Position numbers and translations under genes: made by a program. Of a stretch of 64,000 nucleotides of DNA, positions 39,827 through 59,422 are shown piece by piece. Origin of the DNA: Pristiophorus japonicus (Eukaryota); assembly GCF_044704955.1 (NCBI RefSeq), contig NC_091981.1:5890001-5954000 (forward strand). The letters run 5' to 3'. Below the pieces are notes generated by a model. That model saw nothing but the letters and a program-made list of their open reading frames with translations, searched no databases and was not told the origin of the DNA. Each line of letters begins with the position of its first letter. Positions within the stretch are counted from its first letter, which is position 1.

Positions 39827-39993
39827 TGCTCTTCTCCTTTGCGTGATTTCTGGTCCAACACGAGATAAACCATCCCGAAACTGCCTCTGCCCAGTCTTTC
39901 CTTAACCAGGTACCTTTTTGCGATCAGTGACTCAATGCAGACCATTGCTAAAGGGTCTGTAACACTTTTCGTGGCTTCTCGGAATTTGGGCAT
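39827..39993 (-). CDS. NEK11: NEK11 (NIMA-related kinase 11) first coding exon
   Basis: Manual minus-strand translation from the ATG at 39993 gives MPKFREATKSVTDPLAMVCIESLIAKRYLVKERLGRGSFGMVYLVLDQKSRKGEE, with the kinase Gly-loop GRGSFG. It aligns by eye with the human NEK11 N-terminus (MLKFQEAAK...LIARRYVLQQKLGSGSFGTVYLVSDKKAKRGEE). The exon ends CA|gtaagt (phase 2), and an upstream acceptor ttgtttattgcag puts the exon start at 40082. It is head-to-head with ASTE1, as in human. Confidence 0.93.
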
Positions 39994-40234
39994 GTTTCCC
40001 TTCTCACGGAGCGAGTTCCGACAGCGTGCTTCCAGTACGCTTTATTTTGAATTTCCCAGACACAAAGCCACCCGATCACTCACTGCAATAAACAAGTGCC
40101 AAACGCAGCTGACACAGTTAAAGTACTGTATACTGTAAATAGCCCTGAAAATGAACATAAATCTTACATTAGCACTGCGATAAATACAAAATCTATTGAT
40201 CGAAGAATTATTACAACTTGCAACTAACAATCAT

Positions 40235-44519: not shown

Positions 44520-47500
44520 AAACATAGAAAATAGGTGCAGGAGCAGGCCATTCGGCCTTTCGAGCCTGCACCACCATTCAATGAGTTCATGGCTGATCAT
44601 TCCTTCAGTACCCCTTTCCTGCTTTCTCTCCATACCCCTTGATCCCTTTAGCTGTAAGGGACATATCTAACTCCCTCTTGAATATATCCAATGAACTGGC
44701 ATCAACAACTCTCTGCTGCAGGGAATTCCACAGGTTAACAACTCTCTGAGTGAAGAAGTTTCTCCTCATCTCAGTCCTAAATGGCCTACCCCTTATCCTA
44801 AGACTGTGTCCCCTGGTTCTGGACTTCCCCAACATCGGGAATATTCTTCCCGCATCTAGCCTGTCCAGTCCAGTCAGAATCTTATATGTTTCTATGAGAT
44901 CCCCTCTCATCCTTCTAAACTCCAGTGAATACAGGCCCAGTTGATCCAGTCTCTCCTCATATGTCAGTCCAGCCATCCCTGGAATCAGTCTAGTGAACCT
45001 GCGCTGCACTCCCTCAATAGCAAGAATGTTCTTCCTCAGATTAGGAGACCAAAACTGAACACAATATTCCAGGTGGGGCCTCACCAAGGCCCTGTACAAC
45101 TGCAGTAAGACCTCCCTGCTCCTGTACTCAAAACTCCTTGCTATGAAGGCCAACATACCATTTGCCTTCTTCACCGCCTGCTGTACCTGCATGCCAACTT
45201 TCAATGACTGATGTACCATGACACCCAGGTCTCGCTGCACCTCCCCTTTTCCTAATCTGCCGCCATTCAGATAATATTCTGCCTTCGTGTTTTTGCCTCC
45301 AAGATAGATAACCTCACATTTATCCACATTATACTGCATCTTCCATGTATTTGCCCACTCGCCTAACCTGTCCAAGTCACCCTGCAGCCTCTTGGTGTCC
45401 TCCTCACAGATCACACCGCCACCAAGTTTAGTGTCATATACAAACTTGGAGATATTACACTCAATTCCATCATCTAAATCATTAATATATATTGTAAAGA
45501 GCTGGGGTCCCAGCACTGAGTCCTGCGGCACTCCACTAGTCACTGCCTGCCATTCTGAAAAGGACCCGTTAATCCCAACTCTCTGCTTCCTGTCTGCCAA
45601 CCAGTTCTCTATCCACATCAGTATATTGCCCCCAATACCATGTGCTTTGATTTTGCACACCAATCTCGTGTGTGGGACCTTGTCAAAAGCCTTTTGAAAG
45701 TCCAAATACACCACATCCACTGGTTCTCCCTTGTCCATTCTACTAGTTAGATCCTCAAAAAATTCCAGAAGATTTGTCAAGCAAGATTTCCCCTTCATAA
45801 ATCCATGCTGACTTGAACCAATCCTATCACTGCTCTCCAAATGCGCTGCTATTTCATCCTTAATGATTGATTCCAACATTTTCTCCACCACTGATGTCAG
45901 GCTAACCGGTCTATAATTACCCGTTTTCTCTCTCCCTCCCTTTTTTTAAAAAGTGGTGTTACATTAGCAACCCTCTAGTCCATAGGAACTGATCCAGAGT
46001 CGATAGACTGTTGGAAAATGATCACCAATGCATCCACTATTTCTAGGGCCACTTCCTTAAGTACTCTGGGATGTAGACTATCAGACCCTGGGCATTTATC
46101 GGCCTTCAATCCCATCAATTTCCCTAACATAATTTCCCGCCCAATAAGGATATCCTTCAGTTCCTCCTTCTCACTCAACCCTCGGTCCCCTAGTACATCG
46201 GGAAGGTTATTTGTGTCTTCCTTTGTGAAGACAGAACCAAAGTACGTGTTCAATTGGTCTGCCATTTCTTTGTTCCCCATTATAAATTCACCCGAATCCA
46301 ACTGCAAGGGACCTACGTTTGTCTTCACTAATCTTTTTCTCTTCACATATCTATAGAAGCTTTTGCAGTCAGTTTTTATGTTTCCAGCAAGCTTCCTCTC
46401 ATACTCTATTTTCCCCCTCTTAATTAAACCCTTTGTTCTCCTCTGCTGAATTCTAAAATTCTCCCAGTCCTCCGGTTTGCTGCTCTTTCTAGCTAATTTG
46501 TATGCCTCTTCCTTGGAATTAATACTATCCTTAATTTCCCTTGTTAGCCACGGTTGAGCCACCTTCCCCATTTTATTGTTATTCCAGGCAGGGATGTACA
46601 ATTGCTGAAGTTCGTCCATGTGATCTTTAAATGTTTGCCATTGCCTATCCACCATCAACCCTTTAAGTATTCTTTGCCGGTCTATTCTAGCCAATTTGCG
46701 CCTCATACCATCAAAGTTACCTTTCCTTAAGTTCAGGACCCTAGTTTCCGAATTAACTTTATCACTCTCCATCTTAATAAGAAATTCTACCATATTATGG
46801 TCACTCTTCCCCAAGGGGCCTCGCACAACAAGATTGCTAATTAGTCCCTTCTCATTACACATCACCCAGTCTAGGATGGCCAGCTCTCTGGTTGGTTCCT
46901 CGACATATTGGTCTAGAAAACCATCCCTTATGCACTCCAGGAAATCCTCCTCCACCGCATTGCTACCAGTTTGGTTAGCCCAATCAATATGTAGATTAAA
47001 GTCGCCCATGATTACTGTTGTACCTTTATTGCACACATCCCTTATTTCTTGTTTGATGCTGTCCCCAACCTCACGAGTACTATTTGGTGGCCTGTACACA
47101 ACTCCCACTAGCGTTTTCTGCCCTTTGGTATTCCGTAGCTGCACCCATACCGATTCCACATCATCCAGGCTAATGTCCTTCCTTACAATTGCAGTAATTT
47201 CCTCTTTAACCAACAACGCCACCCCGCCTCCTTTTCCTTTCTGGTCTGTCCTTCCTAAATGCCGAATACCCCTGGATGTTGAGTTCCCAACCTTGGTCAC
47301 CCTGGAGCCATGTCTCCGTGATGCCAACCACATCGTATCCGTTAACTGCTATCTGCGCAGTTAATTCGTCCACCTTATTCCCAATACCCCTCGCATTGAG
47401 GCACAGGTCGTGCGTGCTGCAGAGTAAATCCACCCGTAGCTCCCGTGTCGTAAGGCGGCCTGTCAGGAGCTGCAGGCGGATGCACTTCCCGCACACGTAG

Positions 47501-47545: not shown

Positions 47546-47652
47546 AGTACCGGACTACAGACAAGTTATTTGATTGCAGATATATACGCAATGGATTTTC
47601 CGCAAGGCTCCCGTTTTGCTCCCTCTGCCCCGCCCAACACTTGTTTGCTTAC

Positions 47653-47750
47653 CTTGGCCGCCGAGCCCCCTGGAGTTTGGCGTCCGGTCGCTTGGCGACG
47701 GCGCGGGGCACGCCGGGAGCTGGCCACCCGCCGTCACCGATCGGCCGCTT
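47653..47750 (-). other. NEK11: Putative non-coding first exon of NEK11 (5' boundary approximate)
   Basis: Strong minus-strand donor CAAG|gtaagc at 47653/47652 at the edge of the CpG island, next to a CRE palindrome and an X-box-like motif. Confidence 0.55.
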
Positions 47751-48615
47751 TCGCAGTGACGTCACCCCCATGGCTGGCGGCCACCCCCTCCCCCTCCCCC
47801 TCCCTCCCCCCAGCCCGGAAACAACTCCTCCCTGTCGCCTCTCCAGCTCTGGGCTCTTGCAATGAAAAGTTTTGGGGGGGGTTTTGAAAGTTTTTGTTGC
47901 ATTTTATTGATGGCAGATTGGATCTGGCGATGAAAGTTAATGCTGAATACCCGCATCAATATTTCTATCAGACCATTCGCACCGGCAATCTTTTCCTTCC
48001 AGCGAAGACTTTTGCAAATTTGAACTTTTATTATATTTGCAGATCAAAGGTCCAAACTTGTCACCAGCTCCACTGCAAACAGCGGGCAGCGGGCAGGGGG
48101 CCGCGGTCAGTCGGATGTGTTGTTCGGAGTGTTTGCAATTGCGGCTCTGACGTTGCCCAGGACAGGAGGGAGCTTGGTCCCTGTGAGGAGCAAGACTCGC
48201 GTGTTCGGTCTGCAGTCGCCATCGGGCAGCTCGACAGCCTGGGTTGGGTGAGCATTAAAATGAAGCAGCGTTCGCACACCCCGACAAGTGGTGTGATTAT
48301 ATACGTGGAGAGGTGCCACGGAGCCACAGCCTGTGCTGCGCTATGCTGCTGCTCCCTCCGTCCTCCTGTTCCCCCCCCCACCCCACCCCCCGGGCCTGCT
48401 GCAGACCCTGCAGCCGGGGGGGGATGTGACCGCAGAGCCCGTGCTCAGCTCCCGGGGGGGGCAAGCCGGGCCAGTGCAGGAGAGAGAGAGAGGGGAGGGA
48501 TTTGTCGGATGGGCGGGGCCTGTTGAAGCGGGCGCGGCTGATCACGAGGCGGCGGTTGACGCGCCCCGGCGCGAGCTCCGATTCAAACGTGTGCTGCGCG
48601 CGCGGAGGGCGAGGC

Positions 48616-48860
48616 GGGGGTGAAGCACTGTGATTGGGTGGGGCGTTGCGTTTCGGGGCGGGGGGGGGGGGGTGAAGCGCTGTGATTGGGTGGGGCGTTG
48701 CGTTGCGGGGGTGAAGCGCTGTGATTGGGTGGGGCGTTGCGTTGCGGGGCGGGGGTGAAGCGCTGTGATTGGGTGGGGCGTTGCGTTTCGGGGGGGGGGG
48801 GGGGTGAAGCGCTGTGATTGGGTGGGGCGTTGCGGGGCGGCCCGAGCGCTGTGATTGGAC
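48616..48860. promoter_or_regulatory. Tandem array of six inverted CCAAT (NF-Y) boxes with GC/GT boxes
   Basis: Five copies of about GGGGGTGAAGCGCTGTGATTGGGTGGGGCGTTGCG plus a sixth GCGCTGTGATTGG (reverse CCAATCACAG), ending about 90 bp upstream of the HSCB ATG. Confidence 0.75.
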
Positions 48861-48947: not shown

Positions 48948-49576
48948 ATGTTGCGCGGCCTGGTGTGTCGGGCCTGCCGCCCGGGGCCTCGCCTGCTCGT
49001 CCTCCTTCACCTCAGCCCGGCCGTGACAGGCGGGCGGTTGCTCCCTGCCCGGGCCGCGATAACCCCCTCGACCGGCGGCGGCCTCGGCCTCCTCACTCAG
49101 TTGGCCCCGCGGACTTTCTGCTCCTCCCCGGCCGGCTGCTGGCGCTGCGGGGCGGCCCAGCCTGACCCGGGCCCGGAGCCTCCTGACTTCTTCTGTCCGG
49201 CCTGCCAGGCCTTGCAGCCGCCCGACCGCCGCCTGGATTATTTTCGCTTGCTGGGCGCGCCGCGAACTTTCCGCCTGGAACCGCGGCGGCTGCGGGAGGC
49301 TCACCGGCGGCTCCAGAGGGCACTGCACCCGGACCGGTTCGGCGGCAGCTGCCCGGTCCAGCGCCGGCACTCGGAGCAGCAGTCGGCGCGGCTCAACGAG
49401 GCGCTGGCCGCCCTGCTGCGGCCCGTGTCGCGGGGCCTGTACCTGCTGCGGCTGGAGGGCGAGGGAGAGACCGAGACCGAGGCCGTGGCAGGCGGTGAGG
49501 CCGAGGCCCCGGACCCCGCCTTCCTGGCCGCCGTGCTGGAGCTCAATGAGCGGCTGGCGGACGGCGGCGAGGCCGA
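48948..49576 (+). CDS. HSCB: Mitochondrial iron-sulfur cluster co-chaperone HscB, intronless over the visible part, 3' end lost in the assembly gap
   Basis: Arg/Leu-rich transit-peptide-like N-terminus, tetracysteine motif CWRC...FFCPAC followed by QALQPPD, DYF, J-domain LHPD, LLRPVSRGLYLL and FLAAVLELNERL. The frame is open for about 209 codons up to the N run. Confidence 0.93.
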
Positions 49577-49776
49577 NNNNNNNNNNNNNNNNNNNNNNNN
49601 NNNNNNNNNNNNNNNNNNNNNNNNNNNNNNNNNNNNNNNNNNNNNNNNNNNNNNNNNNNNNNNNNNNNNNNNNNNNNNNNNNNNNNNNNNNNNNNNNNNN
49701 NNNNNNNNNNNNNNNNNNNNNNNNNNNNNNNNNNNNNNNNNNNNNNNNNNNNNNNNNNNNNNNNNNNNNNNNNNNN
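49577..49776. other. Assembly gap (200 N, probably placeholder length)
   Basis: Run of exactly 200 N. Confidence 0.99.
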
Positions 49777-50583
49777 CTCCCCCCTTCCCCTCTTCTACTC
49801 CCCTTCTTCCTGCCCTTCTCCCCCTTCTCCCCCTTCCCCTCTTCTCCTCCCCCCTCCCCCTTCCCCTCTCCCCTCCCCCCTTCCCCTCTCCCCTCCCCCT
49901 CTCCTCCCCTCTCCCCTTCCCCCCCCCCTTCTCCCCTTCCCCCCCCCTTCTCCCCTTCCCCCCCCCCTTCTCCCCTTCCCCCCCCCCTTCTCCCCTTCCC
50001 CCCCCCCTTCTCCCCTTCCCCCCCTTCTCCCCTTCCCCCCCCCTTCTCCCCTTCCCCTCTCCCCCCTTCCCCTCTCCTCCCCTCTCCCCCCTTCCCCTCT
50101 CCTCCCCTCTCCCCCCTTCCCCTCTCCTCCCCTCCCCCTCTCCTCCCCTCCCCCCTTCCCCTCTCCCCCCTCCTCCCCTCCCCCCCTTCCCCTCTCCCCC
50201 CTTCCCCTCTTCTCTTCTCCCCCTCCCCTCTTCTCCCCTCCCCCCTTCTCCCCGGCTCAGTCTGTCTCTCTTCCCCTTTCCCTCCTTCCCCTTTCCTCCC
50301 CTTCCCTTTCCTCCCCTTCCCTTTCCTCCCCTTCCCTTTCCTCCCCTTCCCTTTCCTCCCCTTCCTTTCCTCCCCTCCCCTTTCCCCCCCTTCCCTTTCC
50401 CCCCCTCCCCTTCCCTTTCCTCCCCTTCCCCCCCCCTCCCTTTCCCCCCTTTTCCTCCCCTCCCCCCTTTCCTCCCCCCTCCCCCCCTTTCCTCCCCTCC
50501 CCCTTCCCCCTCCCCCTCCCCCTTCCCCCTCCCCCTCCCCCTCCCCCCTCTCCCTCCCCCCCTCTCCCCCCCCCCTCCCCCCT
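49777..50583. repeat. About 800-bp polypyrimidine/polypurine low-complexity tract
   Basis: Almost only C/T on the plus strand (CCCCTT/CCCCTC-type units). Confidence 0.95.
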
Positions 50584-50671
50584 CGGCAAACGAGCCAAAG
50601 GTGGGCAGAGGAACTCATTTTGAGAGTGGAAGCAAGTCTTCCTCGATTCAGAGGGACTGCCTATGGTGGTG

Positions 50672-52325: not shown

Positions 52326-53399
52326 GGACGTCTGCTGCTCACCAGTTAAGGGCACTCTGCAGCAACAGACGGCCACTTGATGCTGGACAATGTTTAAAGC
52401 CCTCAGCAGGCTGGCCACGGTGAGTGAGGGTGCGAGCATATGCTGGGATGCTGCTGGATGCACCACTCACCACTATCCTGTTCCACTGGCATGTTCTGGG
52501 ACAGCTGCACTGTGGGATTGTACATGTTTGAAGGGCACCCGCAGGTGCTCAGATCACAGGTCGCGGCAGCAGGTGGAGGAATCGGTTCACCCGGCAGGCA
52601 GAATAATTTGCAATAACTGTTTCGGTGTCTTGTTTTATAAAAGGGAGTGGGCTTGAAATTATCTCCGGTCTCAGACCCCCAGGACCCAGTGTAAGAAACA
52701 TTGTCCTAAACAGCAGTAAAATGAAAGACTTGCATTTATATAGCGCCTTTCACAACCACCTAACGTCTCAAAGCGCTCTACAGCCAATGAAGTACTTTTG
52801 GAGTGTAGACACTGTTTACAAATTAACAAATGTAAATAGATGCAACTAAAAGCATAATTTCTAAGATGGGGCTATTGCATCCAAACCCAGTTTGGAACAA
52901 ATATTGATCACTTCAGGCTACAAATTAGTTTAAGCAGTCAAATGTAATTGAAACGAATTGCTCCCGAAGGCTATTCTGGTTTTGCCTGGAATGATCAGCC
53001 AATTAAAATTCGCGTTACCAGAAGTGCACAGCTGTGACTGAGGCCCAATGGAGACTGGTCTCGGGTTTTTGATCACTGTGCCTACGCTAACCCATTAGAA
53101 TGAATGAGCTACCATGGGTGTTCCGGTTGGACTTCCTCGACCCTTGCCTCTTTCAGCCTGTGCCAGAGTAGAGGTGGATTGGAGTTGCTGCCTTCATGGG
53201 GGAGGTGGAGGGGAAATTATGACATTCTCCTGATTTCTGTTGTATAACTTTCAATATATAAAGCTGAGCAAGTGTACACTGATGCAGTGAATCCGGAGTT
53301 GACTTCGGCTATTTTTGTGCTTGATACAATGATCACGTACGACCTAACCACCCAACTCATTGTGTTTGTTACCTAGGTTGAAGCTTTTCATTCTCGAGC

Positions 53400-54722
53400 A
53401 TGGGTATCCACGGATTGATGAGCTACATTGGAGAAAATCGTAACTTTTTTAATAATGTCAAGTTGCAAAATACAAAAATTGTAATCGATGGTAATAACTT
53501 ATTTCATCGACTTTACTTCGACTCTCTTATCGACCTCCAGCATGGAGGTGACTATGATTCTTTTACCGATGTCATCTGCAAATTCTTTGATGCCCTGTCC
53601 CTCTGTAACATTGCACCGTACGTGGTATTTGATGGTGGATGCGACTCTACCGATAAAAAGCTTGAAACGCTCAAACAACGTGCCAGGGACAAAATCCAAC
53701 GGGCGCACCAAATTTCGAGAGGCGGCGGAGGGACACTGTTACCGCTGCTCGGCGCGGAAGTTTTTAAACAAGTTTTAGTGCAGTTGCAAGTTCCTTTTGT
53801 TCAGTGTCATTCTGAAGCAGACCGTGACATTGTGACTCTTGCTAATCAATGGGCCTGCCCCGTCCTAACACTAGACAGTGACTTCTGCATCTTTGATTTA
53901 AAGGCTGGTTATTGTCCGCTCAATTACTTTAAGTGGAAAAACGTAATTACTCTTAAAGGTGGCTCGGAGTCCTACATTTCAGCCCAATGTTTCTCTGTGG
54001 AGAATTTCTGTAAGCACTTTAGCCACATAAACAAAGCTCTTCTCCCTCTCTTTGCGGTGTTAAATGGCAATGATTATGCCAGCCTTCCTTCCTTGGAGAC
54101 CTTCGTCGCCCGAGTGCAACTCAATATAGGGACTTCTGCTTTCACAAGGAGGAAAAACACACGGATTCAAGGGCTCCTGAACTGGCTGTCCAGATTTACC
54201 GAGCCGCAGGAGGCAATCGAAAACATTCTGAAGTACCTGAAACCAAATGAACACGAGGAGGTCCGCCAGCTTCTCTCTTCACAAATGGATGAATACACTC
54301 AGTCAGAAGTGGACCTCGCAAAGTTCTTTCAGAACCGAGAAGCAAAGCCCGACGTTCCCACCGTGATGGCCAACAAAGCCCCCGAATGGATGCTGGTTGC
54401 TCTGATGAAAGGCGAATTGGCCCCCTTTCTCAGCGACTGCCTGATCATGAAGAGGACGTTCCTGAGTACTCAGGTGGAGAACATGGGCAGGCCCAGCAGT
54501 CACCGGTGTTCCCTATATATCCGCCAGGTTATGTACGGACTGCTACTGGGCCCCAGCGAGACTGATCCTGACTCGGCAGCGGATGTGACTGGACAATGCA
54601 GCAAGGTGCATTGTGTGGAGGAATTTGCAAGACATGAGCGAAACCTGAGAAAAACTAGCATTCAGACAGTGCTGAAAAGATTCAGCTCGACTGGAGTCCA
54701 TTCATTGCGAAGCCTGCCAGAG
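53400..54722 (+). CDS. ASTE1: ASTE1 (asteroid homolog 1, XPG/PIN-like nuclease) coding exon 1
   Basis: Motifs MGIHGLMSYI, IVIDGNNL, GGDY, YVVFDGG, EADRDI, DSDFCIF and GNDY. Acceptor tgtttgttacctag puts the exon start at 53377; donor GAG|gtaagt, phase 0. Confidence 0.95.
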
Positions 54723-55522: not shown

Positions 55523-55721
55523 ATTTCTATGTCGGACAGAATCAGCTTTCTATTGGACACTCTGAAAGTGAAACCAACTGTGCAGACTGTACCAGCTCAC
55601 CTGCGGTTAACAGTTGCTGCAACCTGCTACTGGATAGCTCATGCTGAACCCAGAGTGACCCTGCACCATCTTCAGGCTCTGCTGCTTTGCATTGTAACTG
55701 GCGAATTGCATAAACTGTCAG
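55523..55721 (+). CDS. ASTE1: ASTE1 coding exon 2
   Basis: Acceptor ccttttatag|ATT and donor TCAG|gtaaat; encodes ISMSDRISFLLDTLKVK...ATCYW...LHHLQALLL. Phases 0 and 1 fit the neighbouring exons. Confidence 0.9.
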
Positions 55722-56670: not shown

Positions 56671-56860
56671 GTAACTGGAGGTGTGAGAAGGGCGTTAGAG
56701 TGGTGCACGAGAGACTGTCCCGCCTCAGATTGAGGAAGCAGATAAGGAATCTGGATATCGATGTGGCTCATGTCTTCTGTCAGTGGCAGAGCTGTCTTTT
56801 AATGGGAATCTATCTCAATCAGGCCCTGTGCTATCCCCTTGCAGTCCCGGATATTACACG
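56671..56860 (+). CDS. ASTE1: ASTE1 coding exon 3 (absent from the ORF track)
   Basis: Acceptor cctgcctag|GT and donor ACACG|gtaagg; encodes GNWRCEKGVRVVHERLSRLRLRKQIRNLDIDVAHVFCQWQSCLLMGIYLNQALCYPLAVPDIT, matching the conserved AHIFCQWQSCL motif. Phases 1 and 2. Confidence 0.92.
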
Positions 56861-57422
56861 GTAAGGAAATATGTACATGTTTTATAGAGAGCGGCTTGAT
56901 CACTGAATGCCAATCATCTCATCTGAAAAACGGATAATGCCTTGTTCCCTTCCGAAACCTAGATTTAAGTAGCAGCAGTACGGTTGGTAGATGTATGTGA
57001 ATATAATTCACATTTAAAATCTTACAAAGGTTATTAGCGGTGAATGTGATCTACATGTTCCTCGCCTGTGGAATGTGAATCTGGCTAAAAGGTACAAGAA
57101 ATGTAAAGCACCAGTTTCTCTCCTGGTTTTCTCATAGTTCACCCTATTCCAATATTATTTTGTCCTGTGTACAACTGGTTACAAATCCCTTCAGCTCTGC
57201 TCCAATTAAAATTACACGAATTATTCAACAGTTTTGACGTGTGTATATAATCTGTACTCCAGAACAGAGGAATATCAATTTGCGCACACACGCACACACA
57301 GAGAGCATGGCTAAATGTGAGGACATAGGGTTGTAAATTGGGCAGAGTGATAAGATGTATTCTGGGAGGAAGTACAAGGCATATGCACTAAATGATAAAA
57401 CTTTACGGTGTGTAGACACCTG

Positions 57423-58660: not shown

Positions 58661-59130
58661 TCTGTGGGACATGGTGAATGTCCTCAAGTGTGCTGATTGA
58701 TAACTGAATTAATATTAGCACAACAGGAATACAGATTTTCTACGGTACAGATATTTCCTTATTTCTGCAGGGACACACAAGTGAACAGCTCTGAAGTGGC
58801 ACCCCACCCACCTACCCATTGGTAGATAGCAGATACTTAACCTACTTTCCTGATGTATATAGTAGTTCTCTTCAGTTTCTGCACTTGGTGAAGCCAAGGA
58901 AATATATTTTCTTTCGGGTTGTAGAAATGCATCCATCTCAGAATAGGTGCCAGGAGAGTTTTGTCAGCGTTACCAGTCAAAGACTTCTGCAGCATTCAGA
59001 GTTTCACTTTTCCAACATGTTTTACACTTTGAGCAATGCTGCCAGTTTTCGAATAACTTGGTTGATTTGCTGAATATACTGAGAGCCCACTAACTTGCGT
59101 CCGTTCTCTCTCTCTCTCGATCTTGGAAAG

Positions 59131-59422
59131 ACTCTATAGTGGGACTCTTGTTCATTGCTTGCACCAGGAGCTGAAATCGGTTGCTGCAGAGGATCTATTG
59201 AATGGATCACTAGTTGCAGCAGAGATGTACTGCCAGCTCCTGCACACAGTGACTGCAACGGTACCCGCAGACTTCTTCCAAGGGAGAAGATCCAAGGGCC
59301 GGGCCAAAGTGAAGGAAAAACAAACGACTCGTTCAACAGTCTCACCGACGAGCCAAGGGCTCCCTACCTGGCATGATGTCAATAACCAATTTGCAGCCTT
59401 GTCGACTGAGGATTTCGAATAA
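59131..59422 (+). CDS. ASTE1: ASTE1 terminal coding exon
   Basis: Pyrimidine tract then gaaag|A CTC TAT; encodes (R)LYSGTLVHCLHQEL...NNQFAALSTEDFE-stop. The spliced CDS is 1323+199+190+292 = 2004 nt, or 667 aa. Confidence 0.92.

Follow-up and report, generated by a model that had tools for sequence, protein, structure and literature searches.

The only HSCB found in Pristiophorus japonicus, a likely retrocopy nested in ASTE1, is spliced onto its host gene

We analysed a window of 64,000 nucleotides from the genome of Pristiophorus japonicus. HSCB lies there in the first intron of ASTE1 with an intact frame, it is the single copy in the assembly, and its exon is joined to ASTE1 exon 2 in three samples. 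We are quite confident that this sole HSCB is likely a retrocopy that replaced its parent before sharks and rays split, that it likely has its own promoter, and that it is spliced onto ASTE1 to give a bicistronic mRNA.

Layout of the locus and the HSCB frame

Assembled contigs of several sequencing runs were compared with the window. X5, X6 and X7 are three samples of one study, and the kind of run is unrecorded. We read them as RNA because they hold GT..AG joints between ASTE1 exons 2, 3 and 4 that are absent from X1, a DNA run used as the unspliced control. The features are as follows.

39828..40144, minus strand: NEK11 exon 2, the first coding exon, with the start of the kinase N-lobe; the loose end of an X5 contig at 47652 maps here; acceptor; 3' limit approximate
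47653..47750, minus strand: NEK11 exon 1, non-coding; X5 contig spliced at 47652; donor AAG/GTAAG; 5' limit approximate
47871..48247, plus strand: ASTE1 exon 1a, non-coding; X5 contig with a reciprocal loose end at 53376; donor TGG/GTGAG; the start is the contig start and not a mapped transcription start site
48609..48837, plus strand: tandem array of about five units of 39-49 bp, in which one reverse CCAAT box and one GC box recur per unit; putative HSCB promoter
48948..49576, plus strand: visible part of the HSCB coding exon, 209 codons and 2 nt, with presequence, tetracysteine motif, J domain with HPD and the start of the C-domain
49577..49776, plus strand: assembly gap of 200 N over the end of the HSCB exon, with its final 56 codons, its stop codon, 11 nt of 3' sequence and its splice donor
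49777..50584, plus strand: C/T-rich low-complexity tract in the intron behind HSCB, from sequence composition
53377..54722, plus strand: ASTE1 exon 2, with the common acceptor of exon 1a and the HSCB exon; spliced contigs and protein match
55523..55721, plus strand: ASTE1 exon 3; GT..AG joints in X5, X6 and X7, absent from X1; protein match
56671..56860, plus strand: ASTE1 exon 4; GT..AG joints and protein match
59123..59416, plus strand: last coding exon of ASTE1; protein match, limits approximate

One X5 contig on 47871-48249 resumes at 53377, and another goes from 47652 to 40144 on the minus strand. Since exon 1a (end 48247) is joined to exon 2 (53377), HSCB lies inside ASTE1 intron 1, on the same strand. 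NEK11 and ASTE1 are directly head-to-head, and HSCB is downstream of both. The original prediction had put HSCB between these two genes, as an insertion into their shared divergent promoter. This was wrong in detail: NEK11 exon 1 ends at 47653, ASTE1 exon 1a spans 47871-48247, and HSCB is nested in the intron that follows, with a CCAAT/GC-box array of its own upstream. The plus-strand orientation given for ASTE1 was right, as the protein match and the mapped exons agree on it. Overall, the idea of an intact HSCB that replaced its parent stood and the position did not; the splice of the HSCB exon onto ASTE1 exon 2 was absent from that prediction.

ASTE1 is single in the P. japonicus genome, and its AUG at 53400 has a strong context (A-3, G+4). 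The minus-strand neighbour is a NEK-family kinase, with NEK1 as its best match and further NEK-type exons outside the window. Searches of protein databases gave no specific name for it; we take it to be NEK11 from sequence likeness and from its place beside ASTE1, as in human. Its intron 1 holds a LINE-type element (44608-47348) with endonuclease and reverse-transcriptase frames of 457 and 446 codons on the minus strand, and fragments resembling this element are numerous across the window. In human, NEK11 is described as adjoining ASTE1 (PMC6444381). Exon 1a of ASTE1 has four upstream ATGs (47910, 47930, 47940 and 48115), so the monocistronic form may be under upstream-frame control. Contigs of X5, X6 and X7 also continue from exon 4 into the next intron (56831-57300), a retained intron or an alternative 3' end that matches shorter annotated ASTE1 isoforms.

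The HSCB frame is stop-free for 209 residues (48948-49574), followed by 2 nt and the gap of 200 N. GC in the visible exon is 0.75 and GC3 0.89. Its top solved-structure match is human HscB (3BVO, E 4e-28), to which the CWxC...FFCxxC tetracysteine motif aligns, and the H-P-D of the J domain is invariant in all 26 aligned HSCB rows. The translation and this match bear out the predicted uninterrupted frame of about 209 codons with CWxC/FFCxxC and HPD. PF18256 was matched with E 0.00078 and 19.7 bits, below its curated cut-off of 26.2. The presequence is Arg-rich; mitochondrial import and activity with HSPA9/ISCU are predicted. The length, the frame and the last 6 residues of the C-terminal ISCU-binding domain fit, about 50 residues between lie behind the gap, and the domain is complete in relatives. 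The database entry under P. japonicus is identical across the visible 209 residues, and matches from 17 other shark and ray species share 46-67% protein identity.

Human HSCB/HSC20 is a J-domain co-chaperone of HSPA9/ISCU (3BVO; PMC10235907), and its loss is reported to cause human disease (PMC10235907). The shark protein resembles it in presequence, tetracysteine motif, J domain with HPD and a C-domain of equal length. It differs in a shift to G/A/R/P and an acidic insert after SRGLYL, and its gene has no visible introns.

The gap was bridged with contigs of the spliced runs, so the 178 nt described here come from them and not from DNA. A 550-nt contig of X7 (depth 11.2) sits on 49243-49576 and on 53375-53404 with 178 nt between, and an 826-nt contig of X5 gives the same count between the HSCB frame and the ASTE1 acceptor. 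The 629 visible and 169 hidden coding nt make 798 nt, or 266 codons in frame, which gives an HSCB of 265 aa. It ends with ERLPPA-stop, nine bases and AG, and the counterpart in relatives is KERLLPR/T-stop. The count and the terminal residues from the X5 and X7 contigs thus speak for a frame kept across the gap, against the stops or frameshifts that had been named as grounds for rejecting a functional gene. The spacer from this stop to the ASTE1 AUG is 34 nt, of which 11 nt belong to the HSCB exon and 23 nt to ASTE1 exon 2. We also sought the HSCB 3' end elsewhere in the P. japonicus assembly and did not find it, which fits a location inside the gap. The adjacent C/T-rich tract likely caused the gap. 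The database protein P0002 for this species carries a wrong C-terminus: its last 22 aa are drawn from 52973-53040, where X5-X7 show no splice, and are likely a gap artefact.

The whole visible exon is covered by contigs of X1, X5 and X6, and by X7 in two pieces. Since the X1 DNA contig spans 48800-49576 without a break, the HSCB frame is no assembly misjoin, and the suspected misjoin around the CpG island was not found. Between X1 and the window there are 5 substitutions and one 3-nt insertion, all in the first 125 nt, which encode the presequence, and no difference in 49073-49576. A processed pseudogene or an assembly misjoin is the least credible account of all. The frame does end at a gap beside a low-complexity tract, and the terminal branch is long. 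However, the frame is whole to a homologous stop, expressed and conserved in 18 species, the X1 contig is unbroken, and the X1 differences are confined to the presequence. The terminal branch of the window's HSCB measures 0.5 against a median of 0.089, which means faster change than in other sharks and rays.

Splicing onto ASTE1, promoter and translation

The junction from the HSCB exon to 53377 was present in all three spliced runs. The DNA run X1 did not show it: a 4505-nt contig there passes over 53375 and has no loose end. The X5 and X7 contigs go from the HSCB frame through the junction and beyond the ASTE1 AUG with no branch at the donor, and X6 has a bridging contig as well. The bridging contigs carry just 30-31 nt on the ASTE1 side (match threshold 31 nt) and end where the two first exons merge. 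For ASTE1, the HSCB exon thus serves as an alternative first exon. Its presence in X5, X6 and X7 contigs agrees with the expected expression, the RNA nature of these runs being our reading. The longest evidence is short-read contigs, none of which extends from HSCB to the end of ASTE1; the same molecule presumably continues to the poly(A) site of ASTE1. A rare two-gene mRNA is then the likely source of the essential HSCB protein.

An ordinary nested orphan retrogene would make mostly a single-exon mRNA ending at an intronic poly(A) site, with the ASTE1 splice as a minor, degraded read-through. One X6 contig halts 182 nt beyond 49576, at the shared AG-GT where spliced and unspliced forms part. 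Since X6 branches at the HSCB donor, an unspliced form exists in this sample. Between the gap and exon 2 there are two copies of AATAAA/ATTAAA, the gap sequence itself being hidden, and most elasmobranch HSCB models end with the normal stop. These points speak for the single-exon account, but the donor is unbranched in X5 and X7, intronic contigs of X6 occur in other ASTE1 introns too, as pre-mRNA would give, and a ray model (sawfish, see below) uses the same acceptor. We therefore consider a mainly single-exon HSCB mRNA unlikely and prefer the spliced HSCB-ASTE1 mRNA.

HSCB contigs in X5-X7 start at 48960, 48943 and 48947, without loose letters; short-read contigs of this kind cannot map a transcription start site. 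None of the X5-X7 contigs joins ASTE1 exon 1a to HSCB. Upstream of HSCB are six reverse CCAAT boxes (ATTGG) at 48633, 48685, 48724, 48768, 48817 and 48854, and the array at 48609-48837 is, judging from its motifs, a candidate for HSCB's own promoter. X1 holds a form without 184 nt of this CCAAT/GC-box array (48615-48800), that is, copy-number variation in the predicted promoter.

HSCB is predicted to be made by ordinary scanning from the first AUG (A at -3), and most ASTE1 protein would come from the separate monocistronic mRNA with exon 1a. By the 50-55 nt rule, a stop well upstream of exon junctions marks an mRNA for nonsense-mediated decay. The HSCB stop lies >1.3 kb upstream of the junctions at 54722 and 55721, so the HSCB-ASTE1 mRNA should be a target. 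Either this decay would be tolerated, or leaky scanning or reinitiation would bring some ribosomes to ASTE1, and these would clear the junctions. Since the ASTE1 AUG in its strong context is just 34 nt downstream, leaky scanning or reinitiation is possible. Depletion of AUG in the HSCB frame was not significant (1 observed, 1.4 or 3.3 expected, P 0.57 and 0.15), so it gives no positive sequence sign of selection for leaky scanning.

Intron loss, copy number and distribution in sharks and rays

We compared the frame with HSCB entries of relatives. In an alignment with a full-length bird protein, 3 of 23 amniote entries lacked a 30-residue block that starts just behind HPD..RPP and reaches RGIYL, and 11 lacked a 16-residue block near the C-terminus. 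The blocks are missing whole and represent skipped exons. Lungfish HSCB isoforms have a one-residue difference at the first of these boundaries, and teleost isoforms have one at the last. The block and one-residue variants together indicate introns in both the lobe-finned and the ray-finned lineages. At both ends of the 30-residue block the coding sequence runs on without interruption in the window and in the X1 DNA run. Of the three human intron positions given in the original prediction, the two near HPD..Q and SRGLYL are thus supported by the amniote block. The absence of introns covers 629 of the 798 nt, and the gap takes in the boundaries of the 16-residue exon. Two stingray HSCB isoforms (P0005/P0270) differ by a 13-residue block in the presequence, possibly a new small intron made from coding sequence, or a model artefact.

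Three protein queries (the species' own, gecko and caecilian) found one HSCB locus in the genome, the next best match having E 0.9-1.4, and a genome search with the HSCB C-domain family gave no match elsewhere. A weak match on C8 at 219.5 Mb (E 6.3) aligned one CWSC motif and nothing else, and we rejected it as chance. The single-copy result is subject to assembly gaps (4318 contigs). The human HSCB gene presumably has six exons and CHEK2 as its head-to-head partner, and we take CHEK2 and CCDC117 to be its flanking genes. In P. japonicus, CCDC117 is at 181.38 Mb and CHEK2 at 227.20-227.23 Mb of C8, and HSCB is with ASTE1 on contig C5. No HSCB remnant was found in 200 kb around either gene, both free of N runs (best E 0.026 with 13 queries in one search, and repeat matches only in another), so the multi-exon copy to be looked for beside CHEK2 was not found there. 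Here 46 Mb separate CCDC117 from CHEK2, and the two genes still point away from each other; a rearrangement may have broken the chromosome at the old HSCB site. For human, one source describes HSCB as head-to-head with a cell-cycle gene (PMC4176359).

The single locus, the frame whole across the gap, the expression and the lack of a remnant at CHEK2 or CCDC117 support a retroposed, intact copy that replaced its parent. We infer retroposition as the route and loss of the parent. The other outcome first considered, a retained paralog, found no support. Its intron-bearing parent would have to survive in an unassembled part of the genome. The assembly does have gaps, the genome searches score just the best candidates, and conventional fish HSCBs are likewise absent from the best 120 of 171 matches. 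But the three queries and the C-domain family found nothing else, like searches did detect single exons of CCDC117 and CHEK2, and each of 18 elasmobranchs has one HSCB cluster among the matches listed. A surviving parent is thus very improbable.

HSCB could also have moved as DNA, without a retrocopy, and lost its introns separately, or kept one in the hidden 3' part. No poly(A) remnant or target-site duplication is visible, the 3' flank being within the gap and the event old. This would suit a DNA move, as would the rearranged old site (CHEK2 and CCDC117, the human neighbours, being so far apart) and the gap bases, which were not seen as DNA. However, such a history requires a move and the precise loss of at least two introns, presumably five if the parent was like human HSCB, and a new location together with intron loss is the usual mark of retroposition. 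We hold a DNA move to be quite improbable and keep to the retrocopy.

The distribution of the arrangement was followed with a proxy for the DNA of other species: HSCB and ASTE1 were scored on the same chromosome when the longest sequence recorded for each had equal length. They were together in all 14 elasmobranch species (11 sharks and 3 rays) and in none of 18 bony vertebrates among the matches listed, although 3 of these 18 control pairs are weak (two small scaffolds and one split giant chromosome). We excluded from the 14 Scyliorhinus torazame, whose HSCB and ASTE1 come from different assemblies, two Mobula species, Hypanus and Hemitrygon (no ASTE1 row), one skate-like entry and the window's own entries. 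In 7 of 10 species the RefSeq numbers of HSCB and ASTE1 were at most 60 apart, and in two of these, Scyliorhinus canicula and Carcharodon, they were consecutive; the three species with distant numbers were Heptranchias, Heterodontus and Rhincodon. RefSeq number order is assumed to be genome order, and a shared chromosome with near numbers is no exon structure.

Gene models add to this. The sawfish HSCB model ends in DR followed by NEADRTVTWVSMD. In the window, the -1 frame of ASTE1 exon 2 gives VEAFHSRAWVSTD-stop, which agrees with this sawfish tail in its length, its phase and its stop, so the ray model uses the same acceptor. The donor of this model is inside the HSCB frame and its stop is just past the AUG of ASTE1. 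A whale shark ab initio model has HSCB fused to ASTE1 exon 3. In the tree, 20 elasmobranch HSCBs form one clade (support 100/100), and the window's row, incomplete and long-branched, groups with the rays. The GARP/FYMINK ratio after HPD is 2.4-4.2 in 18 of 18 elasmobranchs versus 0.4-1.0 in 13 of 14 bony vertebrates, one snake having 2.05. This raised ratio is expected if the whole HSCB frame lies in a CpG island.

As judged from sequence comparisons, the HSCB-ASTE1 arrangement is probably common to sharks and rays. The lineage-specific relocation first proposed is therefore upheld for all sharks and rays examined and not at any narrower level, and HSCB and ASTE1, whose shared order was to be checked, were by the length proxy on one chromosome in each of the 14 species. 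Chimaera HSCB was not found among the matches listed; six further representatives were caecilian, sturgeon, lamprey, newt, lancelet and gar. In chimaera, a single ASTE1 protein (P0065 cluster) is listed under four RefSeq accessions, implying that its untranslated exons vary between transcripts. ASTE1 may already have had an alternative first exon, into which the HSCB copy then inserted.

We propose that, before sharks and rays split, retroposition of an HSCB mRNA placed a copy in the CpG island at the 5' end of ASTE1, and that the intron-bearing parent was lost. The copy would have gained or found a promoter and a splice donor. It may have survived because it landed in a CpG island with the downstream exons of ASTE1 as a ready-made 3' end.

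Known systems and significance

Orphan retrogenes are known, with 25 human candidates in one survey (Ciomborowska 2013, PMC3548309) and 10 mammalian families in another (Carelli 2016, PMC4772013). HSCB of sharks and rays shares with those described there the lack of introns, the new place, the lack of a parent, a CpG-island promoter and a housekeeping role. Unlike them, as far as these sources describe them, it is joined to the downstream coding exons of its host. The main text of PMC3548309 has 0 occurrences of HSCB. Mouse Taf9 in Ak6 (PMC4772013) is also a retrocopy in a host intron that is spliced with host exons. Taf9 takes the upstream exons and promoter of its host, whereas HSCB is a first exon that donates into host coding exons. 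We found no published description of the HSCB-ASTE1 locus in the literature searched. Neither HSCB nor ASTE1 is mentioned in the main text of PMC13320880 or of 10.64898/2026.06.26.734816; retrocopy tables in their supplements may list HSCB.

The closest messages are those of CERS1-GDF1, SNURF-SNRPN and RPP14-HTD2, in which a single spliced mRNA likewise carries two conserved frames that do not overlap and encode unrelated proteins (PMC4705651). For these, leaky scanning or reinitiation was proposed and both proteins were reported; the limit quoted there for reinitiation is 55 codons (PMC4705651). In HSCB-ASTE1, translation of the second frame is a prediction, and the first frame has 265 codons, far above this limit. 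It also differs in its 34-nt spacer, in the separate monocistronic first exon of ASTE1 and in the upstream frame, which was apparently retroposed.

The arrangement likely marks sharks and rays as a shared derived character. Few bicistronic mRNAs that encode two full proteins are known in vertebrates, and for most of them no origin is known. HSCB-ASTE1 shows a route of origin, from a retrocopy to an alternative first exon of the host. On this natural message two questions can also be tested: by what means an mRNA escapes nonsense-mediated decay when its first frame is long and several junctions follow, and whether a long frame can be followed by reinitiation. A bolder reading, which we offer tentatively and think rather doubtful, is that all sharks and rays make HSCB only from this ancestral, retrogene-born bicistronic mRNA, which would escape decay and also yield ASTE1. 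To our knowledge, passage beyond such a long first frame is nearly confined to viruses. If the bolder reading is true, ribosomes in the cells of sharks and rays would naturally pass a 265-codon frame with so short a spacer, by reinitiation or leaky scanning, and the origin of this case could be dated.
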